From the NCBI RefSeq assembly GCF_030013595.1, contig NZ_CP122768.1: a DNA stretch of 64,000 bases; one strand, given 5' to 3'. Below the pieces are notes generated by a model that had not been told where the DNA came from, did no database searches, and was given only the letters and a program-made list of their open reading frames with translations. Both the position numbers and the translations under genes were made by a program. This DNA is from Escherichia coli (GTDB lineage: Bacteria > Pseudomonadota > Gammaproteobacteria > Enterobacterales > Enterobacteriaceae). This document shows, piece after piece, positions 3,899 through 64,000 of the stretch; the stretch's first letter is position 1, and each line of letters opens with the position of its first letter.

Positions 3899-5892
3899 GA
3901 TAACTTCCTGTTAATCACGCAATCCGGGTTAGCCGTCAGACTTCCGGTATTACCGTTGATTTCAAAACCCTGAACCTGGCGCATTTGTGAGAAATGATTT
4001 GCCAACGACCAGGCATCGACGCCCATCGCATACATGCGAGCCAGCGAATAATCGTTGTTCACCGCGCTGAGCGCCTGCTGCATTAACGGCAGATTACCGC
4101 CTGCCAGCATCGGGATTTCGCTGTACTGCAAGCCTTCCATCTCCAGACGGAAATCCGGGCCTGCGGTGCCTTGTGCGCTGCGGGAACTGGCGTACAGCGT
4201 TGCACCGCTCTGGCTACCGTTACGCATGGCGATCATCGGTTTGATAAAAGCGATTTCACCCGGCGTTGCCACAATGTACACCGCATCGACACGACCGCCA
4301 TTATTGGTGAACTGGTCATCGGTTGGCGTGGTTTGCAGCGTTGGATTGTTGGTCGTCATGCCGGAGTCGGTTGTCGCTCTGGGAGTAATCGGGCTACCCG
4401 TTAAAGCAATACCAGAACCGCCGTTAACACCCGCGCGTAATTCGCTGGTGGAACCAAATTTTTGTTGCAGAACGGTGCCGCCACCCAGTTTCTGCCACTC
4501 TTGCGCAAACGCATTGGCTACGCGATCGCCCAATGAACTGCGTGGGATCAGCACCAGCGGCGCTTGTTTACCCTGGTCACGAATATGACGCGCTGCATCG
4601 CGCGCTTCGTCTTCCGGTGAAAGCGCGAAGTAACAAATATTGACGCGGTTTTCGATGTTCTCCGGCTGGTTCAGTGCCAGCACGTTCAGCGGAGTGTTGC
4701 TCTTCAGCAACTCTTCAACGTTATTTTTCAGCAACGGACCGACCACAATACTCGCGCCATCCTGCTGAACCTGGCTTAAGATCTGGCTAAGTGGTTGTGA
4801 TGAGGTATCGTAGATTTTCAGCTCTGCGGATGGATTTGCGGGTGCGCTTACCGCTGCGGTGCTTGTCGCCGGGGCGCTTACAGGCACCGGCTGGGCCGCA
4901 GGTTGTTCACCGGTCAGATCGCTAACCGAGGCTTGTGCCGGGCTGGCAACGCCATCCACGGTTTGCGGCTGAGGTTGTTCTGCTACGTCTGCGGCAGGTG
5001 CGGCAGCTACCTGAGCCGCCACTGGCTGAGTGCCGATATTTTTTGCCGCTTCAAAGCCTTGCTGAATAGTGCGACCAAATACCGCTGCCTGGCCATTCAG
5101 TGGCAACAGCAGGGCGATTTTGTTGGTCGATGCGGGTTTAAACGCTTTTACGTTAACCAACTGCGTTGGCAGCATTTTCGCGCCCGGGTTGTTCGGATAA
5201 CGTTTCTGCCAGTCGGCGATCCCGGCTTTCATCATGTCGGGATCGTTACGGTTATCAAACCAGATGCGCTGCAGATCCAGCCAGCCTTGCAGAATATTTT
5301 CGTCGGCATTGATCACCAGCGTATTCGCCTGTTCCTGAGTCATGGAGGAGAGCGCCTGCCAGGTGGCGTCAATATTCTGCTGCTTTTCTTTCGCGCCGAG
5401 CAGCGGTTCCTGAGCAATTAACGCGCGCAGTAAATCAATGGAAGGACGCCCCTGGCTGGCATCGATTTTTGCCTGCCAGTAACGCGCTTGCTGGTTTTGT
5501 TCTAAATCTGCAGGTGTGATTTTCGCCAGCAAGTTTTGCGCGCCAGCAAAATCTTTCTGCGCCAGTTTAATCTCTGCCGCCAGCAGTGTTTTCTCGCGAC
5601 GCTGAGAATCGTTCAGTTCTTGCGGTAGTTGGTTAAACAACTCCACCGCCTGTCCGGTTTTACCTTCTTTCACCAGTGCACGAATGGCGAGTAATTGCCA
5701 GTTGATCCTGGTATCATCAGAACTTTGCTGCATCTGTTGCAGGTAAAAGGCAGAATCAGCCTGCGCCGTGCCCTGCATATAAGCAGTGGACTGATCGGGA
5801 GTATGGGTGCCACAACCGGCGAAAATCAGGGCTGCCAGAACAACAGGCAGACAACGCGCGGCTTTCAAACGAGAAAATGTTGAGGGTACCAT
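3856..5892 (-). CDS. lpoA: Penicillin-binding protein activator LpoA (678 aa)
   Basis: ORF track 3856..5922; start trimmed to [27 protein letters not shown] (lipoprotein signal); TPR-like N-domain and periplasmic-binding-like C-domain. Confidence 0.85.
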
Positions 5893-5956
5893 AATGTATC
5901 CAGTGATATTTTTTTTACGCAATGCTCAATATTAAATCGGCAATACGGACGACACA

Positions 5957-6820
5957 ATGAAACAACACCAATCGGCGGATAATTCTCAGGGCCAGCTTTA
6001 CATTGTACCGACGCCAATCGGCAATCTGGCGGATATCACCCAGCGTGCGTTGGAGGTATTACAGGCCGTTGATCTGATTGCCGCCGAGGATACGCGTCAC
6101 ACCGGTTTATTGCTGCAACATTTTGGGATTAATGCTCGGTTGTTTGCGCTGCACGACCATAACGAACAACAAAAAGCCGAAACGCTGCTGGCGAAGCTGC
6201 AAGAGGGGCAAAACATTGCGCTGGTTTCCGATGCCGGAACGCCTCTAATTAACGATCCTGGCTACCATCTGGTGCGTACCTGCCGTGAAGCGGGGATTCG
6301 CGTGGTGCCGCTACCCGGGCCGTGTGCTGCTATCACTGCGTTAAGCGCCGCGGGTTTACCATCCGATCGTTTTTGTTATGAAGGCTTTTTACCTGCCAAA
6401 TCAAAAGGCCGCCGTGATGCGCTAAAAGCCATTGAAGCGGAGCCGCGCACGCTGATTTTTTATGAATCTACCCACCGTCTGTTAGATAGCCTGGAAGATA
6501 TCGTAGCGGTATTAGGCGAATCCCGCTATGTCGTTCTGGCGCGTGAGCTGACCAAAACCTGGGAAACCATTCACGGCGCGCCCGTTGGCGAGCTGCTGGC
6601 GTGGGTCAAAGAAGATGAAAACCGTCGCAAAGGCGAAATGGTACTGATTGTCGAAGGCCATAAAGCACAGGAAGAAGACTTACCCGCTGATGCCCTGCGC
6701 ACGCTGGCGCTGTTGCAGGCAGAACTGCCACTGAAAAAAGCGGCGGCGCTGGCAGCAGAAATTCACGGCGTGAAGAAAAATGCGCTGTATAAGTATGCAC
6801 TGGAGCAGCAGGGAGAGTGA
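5957..6820 (+). CDS. rsmI: 16S rRNA 2'-O-ribose C1402 methyltransferase RsmI
   Basis: ORF 5957..6820 (287 aa); tetrapyrrole-methylase fold sequence; divergent from lpoA as in K-12. Confidence 0.9.
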
Positions 6821-12281: not shown

Positions 12282-13415
12282 TCAAAACGAAGCTAATTGA
12301 CCCTGAATCCAGATTTGTTGCACATGCAGCCCGCTATCCAGCGCAACGACGCTGGCGCGTTTGCCCGGTTTAAGCGATCCCAGAACATCATCAACACCCA
12401 GCATACGCGCCGGATGCAGCGACGCCATATGGATGGCTTCCGCAGGCGTTACGTCCGTCAACTCGACCATATTGCGCACTGCCGCATCAACAGACAGCGT
12501 ACTGCCCGCCAGTCCACCGGACGCGGTACGGACAACGCCACCGTGCATCTGCACTTCTTCGCCACATAACGTATAGCGACCATCCGGCATCCCGGCTGCC
12601 TGCATCGCGTCGGTGATCAGCACGATTCTCTCTTTCGCACAGCAACAACACAGCGACATCGCCGCCGGATGCACATGATGACCATCGGCTATCAGTTCCA
12701 GCCAGGCGCGCTTGTCCGTTAATCCCGCGCCAACCATTCCCGGTTCGCGGTGATGTAAACCTGTCATCCCGTTATAGCAATGCACCAGGCCGTCGGCACC
12801 AGCGTCAAACGCGGCACGGGTTTGTTGCCAGGTCGCCGCGCTATGCCCCAGTATCACCCGTACGTTTTGCTGTTTAAGATGGCGGATGGCCTGCAATGCC
12901 CCTTCTTTTTCCGGTGCCAGCGCTACCACGCGCAAGGTGTGCTGAGAAACGGCAATCAATTGATCCAGCTCGGCAATTTCCAGCTCGCGAAACAGCTCCG
13001 GCGGATGCGCGCCTTTATTCTGCGGCGTGAAGTACGGTCCTTCGAGATAACTCCCCAGCACTTGCGCACCAGGTCCGCCGCGTTGGCAACGTTGAGCAAT
13101 ACGTTTCAGCGCCGCATGAATGGTATTAAGCGGCGCGGTTACGGTGGTCGGTAACCAACTGCCGACACCTTCGCGTGCTTTGTGCATTGCCAGCTTGTCG
13201 AGCACATCCGGCGCGTCATCCATTACATCAACGCCCGCACCACCATGTACATGGGTGTCGATGTAAGCGGGGCAGAGCAGTTCCGCATCGCGTTCAGTCA
13301 CGCCCACTGGAATCGGTTCGATTGCTGAGATTACACCGTCAGCAATACGCAACTGATGGTCATCGAGCCATCCCTCTTCAGTCAGCAGCCTTCTGGCGCG
13401 CAGAACGTGTGTCAT
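12282..13415 (-). CDS. agaA: N-acetylgalactosamine-6-phosphate deacetylase AgaA, full length (377 aa)
   Basis: ORF track 12282..13436; start trimmed to MTHVLRARRLL; NagA-like amidohydrolase with metal-binding His motifs; full length here, unlike the truncated K-12 allele. Confidence 0.85.
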   Translation of the reverse strand: MTHVLRARRLLTEEGWLDDHQLRIADGVISAIEPIPVGVTERDAELLCPAYIDTHVHGGAGVDVMDDAPDVLDKLAMHKAREGVGSWLPTTVTAPLNTIHAALKRIAQRCQRGGPGAQVLGSYLEGPYFTPQNKGAHPPELFRELEIAELDQLIAVSQHTLRVVALAPEKEGALQAIRHLKQQNVRVILGHSAATWQQTRAAFDAGADGLVHCYNGMTGLHHREPGMVGAGLTDKRAWLELIADGHHVHPAAMSLCCCCAKERIVLITDAMQAAGMPDGRYTLCGEEVQMHGGVVRTASGGLAGSTLSVDAAVRNMVELTDVTPAEAIHMASLHPARMLGVDDVLGSLKPGKRASVVALDSGLHVQQIWIQGQLASF

Positions 13416-13846
13416 ATTCCTTCCTCGACCGGACATTCTTCATGGCAGCGGCCTAACTCGTCCACCAAACTGGTCAGCCCACGGTGTCCACACTCCAGCG
13501 CCTGCACACGGAACTCTTCACCGCTTAACCCTTCGCGCTCCAGCACCATCTCCAGTAGCAGTTGCAAATTGGTGCCGGTGATCACTTCACAGCCCGGTTT
13601 TTGCATCGCCAGCGTTGAAGCTACGCGAAACGGCGTGCCGCCCAGCAAATCCGTCAGAAAAACAATGCCGTCTTCACAATCGAGTTGGGCGATGGCCTCT
13701 TCAAGCTGCGATGTAAGCTGCGCGGTGCTTGAGGTTTCGGGAAAATCGATGGCAATAAACTGCGATTGCTCGCCGAGGATTTGCTTCATTGCTTTTTCCA
13801 TGCCACTGGCAAATCCGCCATGCCCTGTCAAAATAATACTTAACAT
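13412..13846 (-). CDS. agaF: PTS EIIA component AgaF (144 aa)
   Basis: ORF 13412..13846; mannose-family IIA sequence MLSIILTGHGGFASG; ATGA overlap with agaA start. Confidence 0.8.
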   Translation of the reverse strand: MLSIILTGHGGFASGMEKAMKQILGEQSQFIAIDFPETSSTAQLTSQLEEAIAQLDCEDGIVFLTDLLGGTPFRVASTLAMQKPGCEVITGTNLQLLLEMVLEREGLSGEEFRVQALECGHRGLTSLVDELGRCHEECPVEEGI

Positions 13847-13863
13847 CTAATACCTCATTGTAT

Positions 13864-14742
13864 TTAAAGGAAATGACAGAATTTACCGACGATGCCGAGT
13901 ACCACGGTAACTGCAATCAGGCGCAGCGGACTCCAGCCGCGGCGTACCAGCCAGAACATGGTCAGGGTGTAGACCAGCGGTAAGAAGGCAGGCATCAGTT
14001 TGTCGATAACATCAGCCTGTAACTTAACCACTGCGTCGCCAGCGGTGATTTCCAGCGTGGTGCTTAAACGAACATAGGTTGCCACCAGCGCGCCGATTAC
14101 CGTCATCCCAACGATTGACGCAGCATGGCCGACTTTTTTGGTATTCGCTTTAATGAGTGGAATCGCCGCCACGCCCATGCGGTAAGCATAATGCGCCAGA
14201 CCAAAACGCAGCCCCAGGTGTACCACGTTGAACAGAACAATAAATACGACTGCGCCAAGAATGGAGCCTTGTAATGCCAGACTGGCACCAATCCCGCCAC
14301 AAATCGGCAGTAGCGTTAGCCAGAACATCGCATCGCCAATCCCGCCAAGCGGCGCACCGACGGCAATTTTGGTGCTCTGAATACTGTTAACGTCCTGCTT
14401 AGAACGCTCCATCGCAAGGATAATGCCGATAACAAACGTCACCAGAAACGGATGGGTATTGAAGAAACCCATATGCCCCTTCATGGCGCGCGCCAGGTCG
14501 CGTTTATTAGTGTGGATCTTTTTCAGAGCAGGCAGCAGACCGTACAACCAGCCGGAAGCCTGCATACGTTCGTAGTTAAAAGACGCTTGTAACAGCATGG
14601 AACGCCAGGCGACGCGGTTGATATCTTTTTTTGTCAGCTCCGCGCCAATACTCTGATCTTCATACACGTTTTCATTGACGCCTGTCAGCAGTGTTTCTTC
14701 GTTTTCACTGACGTTCGGCAGGGTGGTTTGATTAGATGCCAT
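13864..14742 (-). CDS. agaE: PTS N-acetylgalactosamine-specific EIID component AgaE
   Basis: ORF 13864..14748; paralogous to AgaD (shared FNYERMQA motif). Confidence 0.8.
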   Translation of the reverse strand: MASNQTTLPNVSENEETLLTGVNENVYEDQSIGAELTKKDINRVAWRSMLLQASFNYERMQASGWLYGLLPALKKIHTNKRDLARAMKGHMGFFNTHPFLVTFVIGIILAMERSKQDVNSIQSTKIAVGAPLGGIGDAMFWLTLLPICGGIGASLALQGSILGAVVFIVLFNVVHLGLRFGLAHYAYRMGVAAIPLIKANTKKVGHAASIVGMTVIGALVATYVRLSTTLEITAGDAVVKLQADVIDKLMPAFLPLVYTLTMFWLVRRGWSPLRLIAVTVVLGIVGKFCHFL

Positions 14743-15511
14743 CTTCAAATTCCTCTTTCTGTGCCGCAGGTTGAGTCGGTTCAGGAGATTTACGCAGCAG
14801 GTCGATCAGCGCCATCGCCAGCGCGGCGGCAGCAATAGCCAGCACCGGTAACTTGAGCCAGGCTGCGGCAACAAAGCCCAGGATGAAGTAGGGGATGTAG
14901 ACGTTTTTCATCATGATTTTCAGCAGCACGGCAAAACCGATTGCTGGCATGATGCCGCCCGCGACGCCGAGGCCGTCGATTAATCGTTGCGGCAGGACAT
15001 CAATGATGGTTTTGGCATGTTCTGCGCCGAAGTAGATAGGCAGGAAAGCGCAGAGAAAATAGAAAGTGCCGAGTGCCAACAGTGCCAGATAGTTCACGCG
15101 TTCAATGCCGCGTGTATCGGCGTTCTCCGCCATCCGGTCGCAGCGGGACATTACGCCAGACATCACCGAGAACAGGAAGGTAATCCCCATCTGTACTGCG
15201 ACAGCGAAAGGTACGGCGACACCGACCGCGACATCGGGTTTCACGCCAGTAGTAATGGCAAACGCCGTGCCGACGATAGTACCGATAATCACGTTAGGCG
15301 GCTGTGCGCCCGCCAGCGGGGCCAGCCCCATCCACACCAGTTCCAGCGTACCGCCGGTTAAAATACCGGTATGCAGATCGCCAAGTACCAGCCCGACTAA
15401 CGGGCCGAGGACCACCGGGCGGTGCATATGGGTTAAGCCGTTAAACATATCCAGGCCAGCGATAAAGGCGATAATGCCCAACGCGAATGCCTGCAACAGA
15501 CTGATTTCCAT
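14732..15511 (-). CDS. agaW: PTS N-acetylgalactosamine-specific EIIC component AgaW, full length (259 aa)
   Basis: ORF 14732..15511; paralogous to AgaC. Confidence 0.8.
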   Translation of the reverse strand: MEISLLQAFALGIIAFIAGLDMFNGLTHMHRPVVLGPLVGLVLGDLHTGILTGGTLELVWMGLAPLAGAQPPNVIIGTIVGTAFAITTGVKPDVAVGVAVPFAVAVQMGITFLFSVMSGVMSRCDRMAENADTRGIERVNYLALLALGTFYFLCAFLPIYFGAEHAKTIIDVLPQRLIDGLGVAGGIMPAIGFAVLLKIMMKNVYIPYFILGFVAAAWLKLPVLAIAAAALAMALIDLLRKSPEPTQPAAQKEEFEDGI

Positions 15512-18410: not shown

Positions 18411-18875
18411 TCAATGGGGTTCTTCTGTCTCTCGGGTGAGGGTTTCCCAGTCGGCAGGAGGATGTCCTCTTTTTAACATTTTGCTGAATACGGTATAGGC
18501 ATCTGTTTTTTTACCGTAGGTGCGCAGAGTGTTTTCATCGTTCATCCATCCCAGAATGATGACTTTCTCTTTTTCACTATAACGAAAGAAGAGACGATAA
18601 CGACCAGCACCAAATTTTACCCGTGACCAGTCTTTATTTTTCCCAGAGCCTAACGACTTGCCATGACGGAATGCCGGTGATGATGGATTGACCGTGATAT
18701 GCTCCTCAATCACTTTATGGACTACCGCCAATAACTTTGTGGCGGCTTTTCTCTGATAATTTTCAGGATCTTTTCCCTTTAATGTCTCGACTTCGGCAAC
18801 TAAAGCGTCGTAGGTTTCCTGAAAACAGGGATGAGCATATAGCGCCCAACCATTAACCCTTTGTGGAAAATCCAT
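18411..18875 (-). CDS. yhaV: Type II toxin YhaV (ribosome-dependent mRNA interferase, 154 aa)
   Basis: ORF 18411..18875; start overlaps prlF stop by 1 nt; recognised YhaV sequence. Confidence 0.9.
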   Translation of the reverse strand: MDFPQRVNGWALYAHPCFQETYDALVAEVETLKGKDPENYQRKAATKLLAVVHKVIEEHITVNPSSPAFRHGKSLGSGKNKDWSRVKFGAGRYRLFFRYSEKEKVIILGWMNDENTLRTYGKKTDAYTVFSKMLKRGHPPADWETLTRETEEPH

Positions 18876-19210
18876 TATTCGTCGTCGCCAATCTCATCAT
18901 CAATGTTGACGTCCATGCCAGCGACAAGTTTCTTTCCTTGTTGAATGTTGAATGGACGAGTTTTTTGCGGGTTGTTCTGGATATCTGCATCCAGAAAACG
19001 CAAAAATGCATTCATAGTATGATCCTCCTGTTCATCTCCCAGTCGGCACATAAATACTTGCCCACCAGGCAGAATTTCGTAATGAATGCTGTCCTGGCCT
19101 GGCTTCAGTTTTAAGGCCTCACGCACTGGCGCGGGGATAGTTGTTTGTCCGCGTATCGTGACCTTTGATTCAGTGGTCAGTACAGCGTGAGAGCGAGCAT
19201 TAGCGGGCAT
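18875..19210 (-). CDS. prlF: Antitoxin PrlF/SohA (AbrB/SpoVT-type DNA-binding, 111 aa)
   Basis: ORF 18875..19210; acidic C-terminal tail (DVNIDDEIGDDE); immediately upstream of yhaV. Confidence 0.9.
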   Translation of the reverse strand: MPANARSHAVLTTESKVTIRGQTTIPAPVREALKLKPGQDSIHYEILPGGQVFMCRLGDEQEDHTMNAFLRFLDADIQNNPQKTRPFNIQQGKKLVAGMDVNIDDEIGDDE

Positions 19211-40363: not shown

Positions 40364-40444
40364 ACGCCAGGTTTTGGGTAACGTGCCGGATGCGATGCTG
40401 GCTGAACTGCACCCCAAATGTTGGACATAATCTGACATCTGAAG

Positions 40445-40975
40445 GTGCAGTTTATGAAACATTCATTTGAAGTAAAACTTGCCGCTGTAAATCATTACCT
40501 GGCTGGTCATGCAGGCATCATTTCTACGGCAAAACTCTTTCAACTTTCTCACACCAGCCTCTCACACTGGATTAATCTTTTTCTTCTTCACGGTCCTCGT
40601 GCACTGGATTGCAGACACAAGCGTAGCTATTCTCCTGAAGATAAACTTTGCGTGGTTCTTTATGCTCTCGGGCATTCTGAGTCTCTACCCCGGGTAGCTG
40701 CCCGGTTTAACATTCCCAGCCACAACACGGTTAAAAACTGGATAAAAGGCTACCGCAAATCTGGTAATGAGGCCTTTATCAGGCGCAGGAAGGAGAAAAG
40801 CATGACCCGTTCTGATGATACCCATGAAAACGAGGCAAACATGACGCCGGAAGAGATGAAGAATGAGCTGCGTTATCTTCGCGCAGAAAATGCATATCTG
40901 AAAGCCATGCAGGAGCATCTCCTGGAAAAAAAGCGCCAGGAGCTGGAGAAAAAACGAAAGTCATCCGGAGCCTGA
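40445..40975 (+). CDS. IS3-family transposase OrfA (HTH, leucine-zipper region; 176 aa)
   Basis: ORF 40445..40975; in-frame A_AAA_AAG slippery heptamer at 40927-40933 near the 3' end. Confidence 0.85.
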   Translation: MQFMKHSFEVKLAAVNHYLAGHAGIISTAKLFQLSHTSLSHWINLFLLHGPRALDCRHKRSYSPEDKLCVVLYALGHSESLPRVAARFNIPSHNTVKNWIKGYRKSGNEAFIRRRKEKSMTRSDDTHENEANMTPEEMKNELRYLRAENAYLKAMQEHLLEKKRQELEKKRKSSGA

Positions 40976-41079
40976 GGTGCGGACACTGCCAGTCTGACCT
41001 GTTAAAGGCTGCAGGGCTGGCCAGAAGCACGCTGTACTACCAGCTGTCACTGCAGAAGGCTAAGGACAAGTATGCTGAT

Positions 41080-41928
<849 letters not shown>

Positions 41929-44228: not shown

Positions 44229-44469
44229 AAAAACATCCCTTTAATTAAAAGTTGCGAAAGTCTATTCCGGGGATGGAGTAAATGCTATTCGTATCTTTCT
44301 TTTTCGGATGTTATAAAGCTTTTGATATTTAAGATAAATATATGGTTATTTTTTATAGGTAATTTATATAACGACATTGAAATATTTTAAATAAACATTA
44401 GTAAATTATTCATTCATCAACATGATGATAAAAGCCGGATGAGTCAGACATCCGGCGAGCAGATTTGTT

Positions 44470-44834
44470 TTAAGGTTCCAGTTTTGGATCTGGTCCAAAG
44501 CGGTTTTCGCCTGGCGTACCCGCCTGGCAGTTAAAGACGATGATAATAAGCCAGCCGATAAACGGGATTAAGAACAGCAGTGCCCACCACGCCGAGCGGT
44601 CGGTGTCGTGCAGGCGGCGGAACTGAACCGCCCACCACGGTAAAAACACCAGAATACCGTAGATTGTTGTCAGGATGCCTTCGCCACCAGCGCGTTGCCA
44701 GCCTAACATTTTATCCAGCAGCCCCAGCACGAACGTAAAGATGATGTTGACCAGAATAAACATCCAGTACTCTTTGCGCCGCGCACGACCCGGAAACCGA
44801 CATAATTTTTTAGTACTTTCAGATACCAGTCCAT
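44470..44834 (-). pseudogene. yhaH: DUF805 inner-membrane protein YhaH with apparent 1-nt frameshift after codon about 15
   Basis: ORF track gives only 97 aa (44470..44763); a paralogous N-terminus MDWYLKVLKNYVGF starts at 44834 but is 71 nt (not 72) upstream of the internal ATG, so the two parts are out of frame. Confidence 0.6.
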
Positions 44835-44969
44835 TTTTGCCTCAATTTTGCTCAATCACTTGTTTTTAAAGCAGCAAATTAAGAATAGACGTGAATGAAA
44901 TGGCAGTAAATATTCGTTCAAGGAATTAATAAAGTGCCGTGAAGGCGCGCTAAGACTGATGACAAGCGC

Positions 44970-45075
44970 AAAATCGCCAGATGCGCTACGCTTATCTGGC
45001 CTACGCGGCATTGTAACATATTGAATATAAACGTTTTGTAGGTTGGAGAAAACGTTTACGCCGCATCCGACATAA
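44970..45075. repeat. REP/BIME cluster between yhaH and yqjG
   Basis: gccagatgcgctacgcttatctggcctac and gtaggttggagaaaacgtttacgccgcatccgacat resemble convergent palindromic units. Confidence 0.5.
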
Positions 45076-45125
45076 ATAACACGCACTTAGCTAATAATCA
45101 GAGGCACCTCGTAAGGTGCCTTTTT

Positions 45126-58990: not shown

Positions 58991-59057
58991 AGTATGACAG
59001 ACCATTCAGTCAGTCAATGGTCTGTTACATGCCTTTTACACTGTTTTACTTTGGCAA

Positions 59058-60044
59058 TTATAGTTTTACTCTATCTGCCGGAAAAATCACCCCAGTCTGG
59101 CGGCGGATCTCGGTCAGCAGTTTGGCGGTGATGCGACTGACCGTCAGCCATGGATGATCCACCAGATGCTCATCCACCAGTTCAGCAAACAGCTCTGCTT
59201 CGTAGAGCATGGTATTAATATGCTGCGGTTGGGTGAGATCCTGCATCTGGCTGCCACGCGGAACAAAGCAAACTTTCTGGCATTCAGACAGTTTTTCAAT
59301 CACCAGCGATCCCGCTTCGCCCTGAATCTCGCTTGCCAGGACAGAATCGCTCACTTTTGAGTGCTGCAACGTAACGCTGAAATCACCGTAATCCATCACC
59401 ACCACGCCGTGGGCATCCACACCGCTTGCCAGCAAACTGGCGGTTGCCTGCACGCTTTTCGGTTCACCGAATAATGCCACCGCCGACGCCAGGCAGTAAA
59501 AGCCGATATCCATAATTGAACCGTTAGAGAATGCCGGATTAAAGGTGTTGGGATTCTCACCATCCAGGTAACGTTGATACCGCGAGGAATACTGGCAATA
59601 GTTGAAAAAGACTTTACGCAGTTTGCCGACTTTCGGCAGCGCCTGGCGTAACAGATGAAAGTTCGGCAGGCTGGCGGTTTTAAATGCCTCAAACAGCACC
59701 ACCTGATTTTCCCGCGCACAGGCAATGGCGGCATCCACTTCCGCCAGATTCGATGCCAGCGGCTTCTCGCAAATCACATGAATTTTGTGGCTAAGGAAAA
59801 GTTGTGTCTGGGAAAAGTGCAGGGCATTCGGGCTGGCAATATACACCGCGTCAATGGCATCGCTTTCTGCCATCGCTTCCAGCGACGTAAACAGATGCTC
59901 GACAGAAAAATCATTGGCAAAGTGCTGGGCCTGTTCAAGGCTGCGGGAATATACGGCGGTTAACTTGTATTTACCGCTCTCATGGGCGGCCTCGACGAAC
60001 TGGCGAGTGATCCAGTTCGTACCAATCACAGCGAAACGTATCAT
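59058..60044 (-). CDS. ygjR: Gfo/Idh/MocA-family NAD(P)-dependent oxidoreductase YgjR (328 aa)
   Basis: ORF track 59058..60062; start trimmed to MIRFAVIGTNWITRQFVEAA (Rossmann N-terminus). Confidence 0.8.
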   Translation of the reverse strand: MIRFAVIGTNWITRQFVEAAHESGKYKLTAVYSRSLEQAQHFANDFSVEHLFTSLEAMAESDAIDAVYIASPNALHFSQTQLFLSHKIHVICEKPLASNLAEVDAAIACARENQVVLFEAFKTASLPNFHLLRQALPKVGKLRKVFFNYCQYSSRYQRYLDGENPNTFNPAFSNGSIMDIGFYCLASAVALFGEPKSVQATASLLASGVDAHGVVVMDYGDFSVTLQHSKVSDSVLASEIQGEAGSLVIEKLSECQKVCFVPRGSQMQDLTQPQHINTMLYEAELFAELVDEHLVDHPWLTVSRITAKLLTEIRRQTGVIFPADRVKL

Positions 60045-60122
60045 AACGCGTGGATACTCCATAAAGGGATTCTGCCGTCAATGTAGCACGCCTTTTTCAT
60101 CTTCGACGTGCGCAGATACGCA

Positions 60123-60815
60123 TTATTTCTGCGCCGGACAGCCATGCTCACTAAACGGCCCAATCATGACCGATGGCCCGAGATATTTCGGCTGGCGATG
60201 GAGGATTTTTGCGTCAATCACCGCGCTGACTCTGGCGAGTTTCTCCCGTAACTGAGTATAAAAACCGTGCTTCATATTGAGGTCTGGCGCGTTAAAGCCG
60301 ATAGCGTCGATGCCGTACTGTTTTGCCAGCCAGATGGCGCGTTGGTTATGAAATTCTTGCGAAATAATGGTGATATGGTTTTCCCCAAACACCTTTTTGG
60401 CACGCACCACCGAATCAAGCGTTGAGAATCCGGCATAGTCGCAGAAGATCACTTTCGCCGGTACGCCTTTAGCGATCAAAGCCTGCTGCATACCTGAGGC
60501 TTCATCGTAATTTTTACGTCCGTTATCGCCACTTACCAGTAGCCATTTCACTTTTCCGGCGTGGTACAACGCTGCTGCAGTATCAATACGTCGGGTAAAG
60601 TAGCGATTACCCGGCCTCGCCCCCAGCAATAAACCCACGTTCCGCGCCGGAACGGCGTTGACATCGCTCCAGGTCAGTTGTTGGCTGGCGTTGACCATAA
60701 CGCGATCGGCAATAAAAATGGTTGCTCCTGCTATAAGCAGCAATAAACAGCCAATCTTAAGAGTCCGGCGAGAAAAACAAATACGGAGAAGAAGGCGGGC
60801 AAAGGCGCGCAGCAT
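60123..60815 (-). CDS. ygjQ: DUF218 (SanA-like) membrane-anchored protein YgjQ (230 aa)
   Basis: ORF 60123..60815; N-terminal TM helix. Confidence 0.8.
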
Positions 60816-60891
60816 GGTCGTTATCCTTAACGAAAAGGGGGAGGTCGATTTTAGGCGCTAAAGGAAGAAAAGATAACGCCTGACATCATTT

Positions 60892-61395
60892 TCAGATTTT
60901 GTCCTGCCCAAGCGACAACTGCGTTAGCCACAGCCGGGTGTCGAACTCAAGCTGGTGGTACTGCGGCTCCATATGGCAGCACAATTGATAGAACGCTTTG
61001 TTATGCTCTTTCTCCTTCAGGTGCGCCAACTCGTGCACCACGATCATGCGCAAAAACGGTTCCGGCGCGTTGCGAAACACGGTAGCGACGCGGATCTCTG
61101 CTTTTGCTTTCAGCTTGCCGCCCTGCACACGCGAAACAGCGGTATGTAACCCGAGCGCGTTTTTTAGCACGTGGATCTTATTGTCATACATCACTTTATT
61201 GATCGGCGGGGCATTGCGCAGAAACTGATTTTTAAGATCTTGGGTATATTGCCAGAGGGCTTTATCGGTGGCGTAGTCGTGTGTTCCCGGATAACGTTTT
61301 GCCAGCACATCGCCCAGACGCTGTTCGTTAATCAGCGTTCGCACCTGGGAAAGTAGCTGGTCGGGATAACCCTGAAGATAAGTAAGATTGCTCAT
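60892..61395 (-). CDS. ygjP: Predicted metal-dependent hydrolase YgjP (HExxH, 167 aa)
   Basis: ORF track 60892..61431; start trimmed to [12 protein letters not shown]; zinc-binding motif HELAHL. Confidence 0.75.
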
Positions 61396-61479
61396 AACCG
61401 CCCACGAAAAAGAGAAAAAGGGTATACTCACGCACCCTTTTCAGGGGCAACGTCGAAATTTTATCATTCAGGAGGGCCG

Positions 61480-62616
61480 ATGAGCCACTTAGACAACGGT
61501 TTCCGTTCACTGACACTACAACGTTTTCCGGCGACGGATGACGTTAACCCGCTACAGGCGTGGGAAGCGGCGGATGAGTATCTGCTGCAACAGTTGGACG
61601 ACACAGAGATCCGCGGCCCGGTGTTAATCCTGAATGATGCTTTTGGTGCGTTAAGCTGTGCGCTGGCGGAACATAAGCCCTACAGCATTGGTGACTCATA
61701 CATCAGTGAACTGGCCACGCGCGAGAATTTACGCCTCAACGGGATTGATGAGTCGAGCGTGAAGTTTCTCGACAGCACCGCCGACTACCCGCAACAGCCG
61801 GGTGTGGTGCTGATCAAAGTACCCAAAACACTGGCGTTGCTGGAACAACAACTGCGTGCGCTGCGCAAAGTCGTCACGCCGGATACACGTATTATTGCCG
61901 GTGCCAAAGCCCGTGACATCCACACTTCCACGCTGGAACTGTTCGAAAAAATGCTCGGCCCGACCACCACCACGCTGGCATGGAAGAAGGCACGCTTAAT
62001 TAACTGTACTTTCAACGAGCCGCCGCTGGCCGATGCGCCGCAGACCGTTAGCTGGAAACTGGAAGGTACTGACTGGACTATCCACAACCATGCGAATGTC
62101 TTCTCCCGCACCGGGCTGGATATTGGCGCGCGCTTCTTTATGCAGCATCTGCCAGAGAATCTCGAAGGTGAGATTGTCGATCTCGGTTGTGGTAATGGCG
62201 TTATTGGTCTGACGCTGCTTGATAAAAACCCGCAGGCGAAAGTGGTGTTTGTCGATGAATCGCCGATGGCGGTTGCTTCCAGCCGTTTGAACGTTGAAAC
62301 CAACATGCCAGAGGCGTTGGATCGCTGCGAGTTTATGATCAACAACGCGCTCTCCGGCGTGGAGCCTTTCCGCTTTAATGCTGTGCTCTGCAACCCGCCG
62401 TTTCATCAGCAACATGCGCTGACCGATAACGTCGCCTGGGAGATGTTCCACCACGCCCGCCGCTGTCTGAAAATCAACGGCGAGCTGTATATCGTTGCCA
62501 ACCGTCACCTGGATTACTTCCATAAACTGAAGAAGATTTTCGGCAACTGCACCACCATCGCCACGAATAATAAATTTGTGGTGCTGAAAGCAGTGAAGCT
62601 GGGGCGTCGTCGGTAA
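61480..62616 (+). CDS. rlmG: 23S rRNA m2G1835 methyltransferase RlmG (378 aa)
   Basis: ORF 61480..62616; tandem methyltransferase domains, SAM-binding motif VDLGCGNGV and NPPFH catalytic motif. Confidence 0.9.
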
Positions 62617-62624
62617 GATTGGCA

Positions 62625-62722
62625 GCTACCTGCCAGATAAGGCGTAAACGCCTTATCTGGCATACGTTCAGCACATTACCCCCAGGTCGGATAAGACGCG
62701 GCAAGCGTCGCATCCGGCACTT
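62625..62722. repeat. REP/BIME cluster between rlmG and fadH
   Basis: tgccagataaggcgtaaacgccttatctggcat and ggtcggataagacgcggcaagcgtcgcatccggcac match the PU consensus pattern. Confidence 0.55.
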
Positions 62723-62733
62723 CAATGCACGAT

Positions 62734-64000
62734 TTAAATCTCCAGCGCCAGCCGTGTTCCTTGGGCAATTGCCCGTCGTGCGTCCAGCTCCATAGCTACA
62801 TCGCAGCCGCCAATTAAATGCACAGTTTTCCCGCTATCAATCAGCGGTTGCGCCAGCGCGCGGTTTGGCTCTTGCCCTGCGCAGATCACCACATTGTCCA
62901 CTGCTAATACCTGCGTTTCGCCGTTGATCACCACATGCAGCCCGTCATCGTCGATCTTCTGATAACTTACGCCTGGGATCATTTTCACGCCGCGCGAGAG
63001 CAAGGTGGTGCGATGGATCCAGCCGGTGGTTTTGCCTAACCCCTGTCCCGGTTTGCTGGCTTTGCGCTGGAGCATCACAATCTGCCGTGGGCTACGCGGG
63101 ATCTGCATTCCCTGCGGGCTTAAGCCACCAGCCTGTTGCAGGCTGCTGTCGATCCCCCACTCATTACAGAACTCGGCAATGTTCTTGCTGGTGGACTCAC
63201 CCGGCTGACTTAAAAACATCGCCGTATCAAAACCAATCCCGCCACAACCGATGATTGCTACCTTTTTGCCCACAGGCGCTTTGTCGCGCAGTACGTCGAG
63301 ATAACTCAACACCTTCGGATGATCGATTCCGTCGATAGGTGGAATGCGCGGTACGATCCCGCTAGCGAGGATCGTTTCATCGAACGACTGTAACTGATCC
63401 GCCGTCACGGTGTGATTGAGTTTCAGCGTCACGCCTGTTACTTCGATCATCCGGCGGTAATAGCGCAGCGTTTCGTAAAACTCCTCTTTGCCAGGGATCT
63501 GTTTGGCGATATTAAACTGACCGCCGATCTCACTGTGAGCATCAAACAACGTTACCTGATGACCACGTGCCGCCGCGTTAATGGCAAACGCCAGCCCAGC
63601 CGGACCAGCGCCGACCACCGCCAGATTTTTTTTCTGCACGGCGGGAAGGATCGGCATTTTGGTTTCGTGGCAGGCGCGAGGATTCACCAGGCACGAGGTG
63701 ACTTTGCCCACGAAGATCTGATCGAGGCAGGCTTGATTGCAGCCAATACAGGTGTTGATCTCATCGGCTCGCCCTGATTGCGCTTTTGACAGCAGTTCCG
63801 CATCAGCAAGAAACGGTCGCGCCATCGATACCATATCGGCATCACCGCGCGAGAGAATGTCGTCGGCAACCTGCGGATCGTTAATCCGGTTGGTGGTCAC
63901 CAGCGGCAGCGAGACGTGGCCTTTCAGTTTGCGCGTGACCCAGCTAAATGCGCCGCGCGGCACGGGCGTGGCGATGGTCGGAATACGCGCTTCATGCCAG
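62734..64000 (-). CDS. fadH: 2,4-dienoyl-CoA reductase FadH, C-terminal two-thirds (gene continues past window end)
   Basis: ORF track 62734..63963 is the 3' part; FAD/NAD(P)-binding GxGxxG motifs (VVGAGPAGLAFA, IIGCGGIGFD); reading frame stays open to the window edge. Confidence 0.85.
   Translation of the reverse strand, partial: WHEARIPTIATPVPRGAFSWVTRKLKGHVSLPLVTTNRINDPQVADDILSRGDADMVSMARPFLADAELLSKAQSGRADEINTCIGCNQACLDQIFVGKVTSCLVNPRACHETKMPILPAVQKKNLAVVGAGPAGLAFAINAAARGHQVTLFDAHSEIGGQFNIAKQIPGKEEFYETLRYYRRMIEVTGVTLKLNHTVTADQLQSFDETILASGIVPRIPPIDGIDHPKVLSYLDVLRDKAPVGKKVAIIGCGGIGFDTAMFLSQPGESTSKNIAEFCNEWGIDSSLQQAGGLSPQGMQIPRSPRQIVMLQRKASKPGQGLGKTTGWIHRTTLLSRGVKMIPGVSYQKIDDDGLHVVINGETQVLAVDNVVICAGQEPNRALAQPLIDSGKTVHLIGGCDVAMELDARRAIAQGTRLALEI

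Follow-up and report, generated by a model that had tools for sequence, protein, structure and literature searches.

The REP elements (palindromic units) of Escherichia coli, and the BIMEs in which they are grouped, are known from the literature of Higgins, Gilson, Bachellier and others to act on RNA or DNA in 3'-end protection, in attenuation and in the binding of gyrase, IHF and Pol I. REP-loop targeting is textbook behaviour for IS1397, and in 1990 Shyamala, Schneider and Ames reportedly found REPs as the join-points of tandem duplications. REPs have been described as imperfect GC-rich palindromes of ~35-40 nt with a GCCGGATG...CTTATCCGGC core and a (C/A)TAC tail or GTAG/CTAC foot, and their published roles include mRNA 3' stabilisation, attenuation and protein binding as well as service as IS targets and recombination substrates (Ton-Hoang et al. 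2012, PMC3333891). TnpA_REP/RAYT (REP-associated tyrosine transposase) cleaves and recombines BIMEs in vitro, and it has been suggested that BIMEs are able to sequester flanking genes; the tnpA_REP 'REPtron' itself has been lost or replaced in some strains, including a replacement by hicAB (PMC3333891).

The genes ygjNM have been established as higBA, a type II toxin-antitoxin (TA) module, and a viable ygjNM deletion strain has been listed, so that loss of the whole module is evidently tolerated (Christensen-Dalsgaard et al. 2010, PMC2814082). Variability of the locus has also been published: HigBA is complete in K-12 and HS, whilst CFT073 and NRG857c carry an orphan higA (PMC7232551). The sequence described here is a window of 64 kb, by which we mean the whole stretch of E. 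coli DNA that was analysed, and its right-hand part covers the same chromosomal gap and ends within fadH. It represents a common and already documented type of variation, and it differs from the states in PMC7232551 in being a third, fully empty state that lacks both genes; no description of a fully empty rlmG-fadH gap was found in the literature on the locus (PMC2814082, PMC7232551).

The first-pass annotation of the window had claimed that higBA, which in K-12 was said to lie between fadH and rlmG, is absent from this interval, and both parts of the claim are borne out. The MG1655 order is fadH (b3081), higA (b3082), higB (b3083) and rlmG (b3084), and in alignment its gap, which has the same arrangement in BW25113, measures 1,055 bp as against a stop-to-stop spacer of exactly 117 bp in the window. 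The left-hand ORF is RlmG (887 bits to NCBIfam NF011577, residues 1-378 of 378); the right-hand ORF comprises the C-terminal 421 aa of FadH, with 98-99.8% amino-acid identity to other E. coli FadH by tblastn, and the ORF from 62734 onward is called fadH by RefSeq in strain HCP5S3_I2, which is 99.9% identical in this region (Table 1). Searching the whole window with K-12 HigB and HigA (tblastn) returned only noise (best E = 0.07), and no HigB gene (PF09907) followed by an overlapping HTH_3 antitoxin gene occurs in the 64 kb; the K-12 proteins match PF09907 (HigB) and PF01381 (HigA). Three ORFs, of 58, 83 and 30 aa, overlap the spacer; each is largely antisense to rlmG or fadH and none gave a match in a Pfam search, which rules out an overlooked pair of small ORFs, including the pair of under 60 aa that the annotation had allowed might have been missed. 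A consensus scan of 62400-62950 detected neither a promoter nor a T-run terminator. No integrase, transposase, recombinase or att-like feature lies at or adjoining the site, where the REPs are the sole repeats. The window is thus a higBA-null allele of the rlmG-fadH gap. Another type II TA module, prlF-yhaV, is present at 18411-19210 (-), colinear with K-12, and the strain has therefore not lost all of the neighbouring K-12 TA loci.

Table 1. Position of the rlmG-fadH spacer, its repeats and its flanking genes within the window.
Feature	Position	Strand	Basis
rlmG (23S rRNA m2G1835 methyltransferase), left flank	61480..62616	+	NCBIfam NF011577; RefSeq annotation of HCP5S3_I2
Convergent spacer, higBA-free allele: one BIME (REP1, linker, inverted REP2) and 14 nt before the fadH stop codon	62617..62733	.	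Sequence; alignment with K-12, CH4799, 536 and other empty alleles
REP1, perfect palindrome with 15-bp arms (TGCCAGATAAGGCGT/ACGCCTTATCTGGCA), then an ATAC tail (canonical tail CTAC)	62631..62665	+	
REP2, inverted relative to REP1; minus strand reads TGCCGGATGCGACGCTTGCCGCGTCTTATCCGACC	~62684..62719	-	Imperfect hairpin in both folds
REP2 3' arm, GCGTCGCATCCGGCA	62705..62719	.	Junction comparison
fadH (2,4-dienoyl-CoA reductase), right flank; 3' 1,267 nt, running past the window end	62734..64000	-	RefSeq colinear genomes

It had also been claimed that the spacer holds only REP-like palindromes, and here the two hairpins stand, but any notion that they take the place of higBA does not: the K-12 gap has both REPs too, to the left of higBA, with rlmG on one side of them and the higB promoter on the other, and they occur in this position in every occupied allele compared. 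An inverted-repeat search placed the two REP1 arms, of 15 nt each and 100% complementary, at 62631-62645 and 62648-62662, and the predicted RNA fold contains a 14-bp stem at this point. A pattern modelled on the canonical E. coli REP is matched by REP1 (62632-62665) at 2 mismatches, where chance alone would give 0.00 matches; this pattern has a 2-nt loop, whereas a stricter long-loop pattern gave no match. REP2, whose minus strand carries GCCGGATGCGACGC...GCGTCTTATCCGACC, is homologous to the REP2 to the left of the higB promoter in K-12, O157, ST131 and 536. As RNA, the spacer folds with z = -6.3 on the plus strand and -3.8 on the minus strand, and none of 200 shuffled sequences folds as well. 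The window has a perfect canonical REP at 41890-41923 and further copies at ~45038-45072 and 40381-40402, and REP-containing queries match 2-3 places per genome at the median. Since there are two REP hairpins, of which REP1 fits the canonical pattern, the pair constitutes one BIME: it shows the REP arm and foot pattern, stable stem-loops, an extragenic position between convergent genes, multiple copies and two opposed units separated by a short linker. By analogy with the established properties of REPs (PMC3333891), the hairpin pair most likely caps the transcripts of the convergent genes rlmG and fadH at their 3' ends, protecting them from exonucleases, and attenuates read-through.

Nothing else about this BIME is unusual in comparison with other E. 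coli REPs and BIMEs, apart from the perfection of the REP1 palindrome. Both REP1 arms (62631-62662) carry GCCAGATAAGGCGT, which pairs fully, whilst in the canonical form, found at the same site in K-12 and at 41890-41923 of the window, a GCCGGATGCGGCGT arm faces GCCGGATAAGGCGT and mispairs at two positions. The change amounts to GC corrected to AA, with a G-to-A in one arm matched by a C-to-T in the other, and looks like a hairpin-templated (quasi-palindrome) correction; the perfect variant is also present in FDAARGOS_1289, O157 and 536. Elsewhere in the window, IS1397 (IS3 family) occupies ~40403-41845 in the cyuA-yhaL interval, where it has entered a REP at its loop, leaving GTGCCGGATGCGATGCTGG on one side and CGCGTCTTATCTGGCCTAC on the other (flanks at 40380-40402 and 41843-41858). 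Strain HCP5S3_I2, which is 99.9% identical to the window around this site, carries an oppositely oriented IS1397 of 98.6% identity in the loop of the adjacent REP within that BIME (L092, 39737-41211), which implies that, in strains nearly identical to each other, IS1397 either inserted twice independently or hopped locally.

Comparison of occupied and empty alleles revealed the cassette to be flanked by copies of the same repeat. In higBA+ alleles the REP2 3'-arm motif GCGTCGCATCCGGCA occurs both to the left and to the right of the cassette: at the left junction ...GCGTCGCATCCGGCA is followed directly by ATGTCTGCCC, and at the right junction ...GGATGCGTYGCATCCGGC(A/G) is followed by CTTCAA. 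In the coordinates of the window the cassette would lie immediately after 62719. What lies to the right of higA varies in its state of preservation. In Escherichia sp. MOD1-EC7003 it is a full second BIME (BIME'), which aligns over 110 nt with the whole spacer of the window; in E. whittamii it is a BIME' that is almost complete (REP1 identical over 42 nt, REP2 with 3 differing positions); and in the uropathogenic strain UPEC 536 half of REP1' and a complete REP2' remain. K-12, O157, ST131 and FDAARGOS_1289 have in its place a short hairpin, GTGCCGGATGCGTYGCATCCGGC(A/G), consisting of the 5' arm of REP1 fused to the 3' arm of REP2, and in K-12 this collapsed 22-nt hairpin is the only remnant. 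Given the second BIME copy in E. whittamii, MOD1-EC7003 and 536, the cassette is bracketed by direct repeats, of ~90-105 nt in the least decayed alleles and of 13-16 nt (GCGTYGCATCCGGCA) in the most decayed, and when the cassette and one repeat copy are taken out, exactly the 117-bp spacer is left.

A survey of 5,426 complete E. coli genomes revealed that the locus exists in three states, of which that of the window, a frequent natural variant, is the third commonest. DNA of higA is present in 4,377 genomes (80.7%) and missing from 1,049 (19.3%). A higB match over at least 80% of its length was found in 2,822 genomes (~52%), and a partial match only in a further ~1,460 (~27%; 4,282 with any match minus 2,822), of which those sampled retain just the last 78 nt of the gene. 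In this ~27% a 324-bp deletion extends over promoter and operator and takes away the first 237 nt of higB, so that the 138-aa higA is intact but an orphan antitoxin without its native promoter, as in CH4799 and UPEC 536 (L002 and L003, locus 2414-2904); microhomology was looked for at this truncation and none was obvious. The empty junction of the window type was counted with a 76-nt query (40 nt of REP2 and 36 nt of right flank, matched over at least 80%) and occurs in 990 genomes (18.2%); it supersedes a 200-nt junction query, whose 2,414 genomes are an over-count because pieces up to 600 bp apart were merged, taking in the 614-bp truncated allele. With 4,379 higA places spread over 4,377 genomes, the cassette exists as a single copy and is not mobile. 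The sum of the 4,377 higA-positive and 990 empty-junction genomes does not exceed 5,426, which is consistent with, but no proof of, the lack of a second higBA copy in empty-site strains.

The direction of the change was judged from 11 E. coli alleles read at the sequence level and from outgroups other than E. fergusonii, E. marmotae, E. ruysiae and Salmonella. Within E. coli, nucleotide divergence is 0.2-3.4% for higA against 1.9-4.0% for rlmG; the corresponding values for E. coli compared with E. whittamii are 5.8-6.5% and 5.5-6.5%. Since the divergence of higA tracks that of its neighbours rlmG and fadH, the cassette has been resident since before the E. coli and E. whittamii lineages split, and this co-divergence argues for old vertical residence with repeated loss, and against repeated integration. 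The empty alleles are polyphyletic and lie on unrelated flank haplotypes. Indeed, the window has no differences from the higBA+ strain FDAARGOS_1289 over 61952-62719 (768 bp, through the BIME), whilst 43 positions in rlmG and 64 in fadH separate it from the empty 38M23CPO005 allele, with further changes inside the BIME; the haplotype of 38M23CPO005 in turn has its closest counterpart in the truncated CH4799 allele, from which its rlmG departs at 4 positions.

Sequence diversity around higBA is unusually high. From ygjR to fadH (window 59000-64000) divergence from K-12 MG1655 is 4-6% per kb, compared with a window median of ~1.9%, and fadH differs by 2.5-6.7% among ordinary E. coli strains (3.8-4.8% for pairs involving the window), with mosaic patterns; the fadH of 536 differs from that of two empty-site strains by ~7.6%. 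Other peaks at ~12, 26 and 43-45 kb mean that the ygjR-fadH region is not unique in this respect. Two further differences in gene content were observed in the window. Positions 12841-15135, missing in K-12, hold the agaW-agaE-agaF-nagA(agaA) portion of the N-acetylgalactosamine cluster in intact form, where K-12 has the known agaW'/agaA' deletion. In the closest complete genome, HCP5S3_I2, the interval from yhaH to yqjG carries an inserted IS200/IS605 tnpA (L092, ~44415-45120), where the window (~45127) has none.

The origin of the empty alleles that we consider probable is recurrent deletion of higBA by recombination between BIME and BIME', which we favour over retention of an allele that was never occupied; both the loss and its mechanism are inferred from the comparison of alleles and are not proven. 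The ancestral Escherichia order would have been rlmG, BIME (REP1, REP2), higB promoter/operator, higB, higA, BIME' and fadH, so that two BIMEs of roughly 90-105 nt, in direct orientation, enclosed the TA cassette. If these copies recombined unequally, or if replication slipped from one to the other, the cassette would be lost along with one copy, and where BIME' had collapsed the same event could take place between the surviving 13-16-nt REP2 arm repeats; in either case exactly one BIME would be left, and after it the 14 nt before the fadH stop codon. Because the BIME copies are in register, independent deletions would be expected to yield the same length of 117 bp. The proposal that REPs are involved at a variable TA locus thus gains mechanistic support from the bracketing of the cassette by REP/BIME repeats. 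The locus resembles known REP-mediated rearrangements and REPtron loss in that BIME-bracketed genes are lost precisely and a BIME is left behind, and resembles the REPtron/hicAB case (PMC3333891) in that a BIME-associated TA pair is polymorphic between E. coli strains; it differs in that recombination at rlmG-fadH, whether by RecA, slippage or TnpA_REP, is deduced from comparative anatomy alone. Some observations fit deletion poorly. One empty haplotype has on its right 14 nt (CTTCAACGCACTTTTT) that adjoin no sampled higBA+ allele, and the spacer of the window is itself a mosaic, its left part matching FDAARGOS_1289 and 536 and its right 14 nt matching O157; a single higBA+ allele that could have been its parent was not recovered among the 11 E. 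coli alleles. A short, REP-bearing empty spacer is moreover the norm across the Enterobacteriaceae, and the empty site must therefore be the original state at some depth, so that in E. coli, too, some empty alleles could have been retained from it. This family-wide norm and the unmatched right flank also speak for the alternative that the lineage of the window never received higBA and that higBA+ alleles are derived insertions, as do the empty gaps of two E. coli-labelled GTDB species representatives (L008 and L010). On that view higBA could, for example, have arrived with a BIME on a DNA molecule, circular or linear, whose recombination with the resident BIME would also produce flanking repeats. 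We nevertheless regard the alternative as unlikely, given that the co-divergence of higA with rlmG and fadH, E. whittamii included, places insertion before the diversification of E. coli, that the empty alleles do not cluster but each pair with a different occupied haplotype, in the closest case without a single difference, and that the same cassette would need to have been inserted repeatedly at exactly one nucleotide in several backgrounds. That higBA was dropped from the window by misassembly across repeated REPs can be practically dismissed: the cassette is repeat-flanked, and such repeats can in principle collapse in short-read assemblies, but repeats of at most 100 nt are too short to collapse a unique segment of 940 bp and the identical junction is found in all 990 of the empty-junction genomes, which are finished and come from many laboratories.

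The suggestion that the REP cluster is an active integration hotspot, a landing pad for varied small modules of which the window is the vacant state, has to be judged against the wider family. Among 75 non-Escherichia species representatives retrieved with RlmG, most have fadH a few bp to ~160 bp away and no hig genes, and these empty spacers usually contain the REPs of their own genus. Homologues of higBA occupy the gap in L009, L057, L070 and L072; those of Pseudocitrobacter faecalis (L057), 'Citrobacter sp. 18056' (L070) and the Enterobacteriaceae strain RIT691 (L072), at ~5350-6140, have 64-69% (HigB) and 72-83% (HigA) identity, and have in common an upstream sequence (TTCTGGAAGCG...) and operator-like TTGCCAATTTGGCAA palindromes. 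As the gap is empty in L071, a close relative of L070, the polymorphism must be much older and wider than E. coli. Other cargo has also been found at the orthologous junction. In MOD1-EC7003 (L007, 5270-6130) a gene for a 286-aa DUF1266 protein (PF06889, 87 bits) stands in the place of higB directly upstream of an intact higA, and DUF1266 beside a conserved higA may be a toxin replacement; the gap of E. albertii NBRC 107761 (L006, from 1636) begins in a similar way, with a probable DUF1266 gene, in a comparison that covers the left side only as the contig stops 641 bp past rlmG, apparently in an IS. Enterobacter sp. kpr-6 (L058, 5297-6681) has a DUF3289 gene (310 bits) and then an overlapping gene for a DUF943 membrane protein, with Enterobacter-type REPs on both sides, a layout that resembles a toxin/effector-immunity pair. 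Citrobacter youngae (L031), an unclassified Enterobacteriaceae isolate (L030) and Enterobacter sp. ENT03 (L060) have tandem arrays of 4-6 BIME units (372-457 bp, from 5138 to ~5600), which represent local BIME amplification.

This variety of homologues, cargo and BIME arrays speaks for a hotspot, and REPs are proven IS targets, as the IS1397 in a REP loop elsewhere in the window illustrates. The part of the suggestion that stands is that the site varies between strains and that other species hold other cargo there; diverse gains within E. coli were not seen. In 5,402 of the 5,423 E. coli genomes with a match (the remaining ~21 lay outside inspection), a query spanning rlmG-fadH was recovered at a single place with at least 80% of its length, so that the gap is compact in nearly all, and the sampled states (intact, deleted for the promoter and 5'-higB, or all gone) are decay stages of one cassette; several unrelated cargos were not found at this junction among the sampled E. 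coli alleles. With a single-copy cassette that co-diverges with its flanks, and a site in the window devoid of an integrase, transposase or att-like feature, we consider an active hotspot very improbable. We give slightly less credence still to the related proposal that TnpA_REP/RAYT handles BIME-bounded higBA, and by extension the DUF1266 and DUF3289/DUF943 cassettes, and that the spacer is the product of a precise, enzyme-catalysed excision, because higBA is single-copy and co-diverges with its flanks; the proposal would agree with the in-vitro activity of TnpA_REP on BIMEs and with the suggested sequestering of flanking genes by BIMEs (PMC3333891). If it were true, rlmG-fadH would be a family-wide, REP-dependent docking site for small gene cassettes.

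The allele of the window is by itself of little import, being one more presence/absence polymorphism of a chromosomal type II TA module. The locus as a whole offers a clean, countable decay series of intact modules (~52%), orphan antitoxins (~27%) and full deletions (~18%). Under recurrent BIME-mediated deletion, the reading that we prefer, it would be a tidy natural case of REP-mediated gene loss in which the toxin goes before the antitoxin; such a REP-repeat scar is a reasonable account of the spacer, though it introduces no principle that is new. In practice, strains like that of the window are without HigB, and the ten mRNA interferases inventoried in K-12 should not be taken for granted in them.
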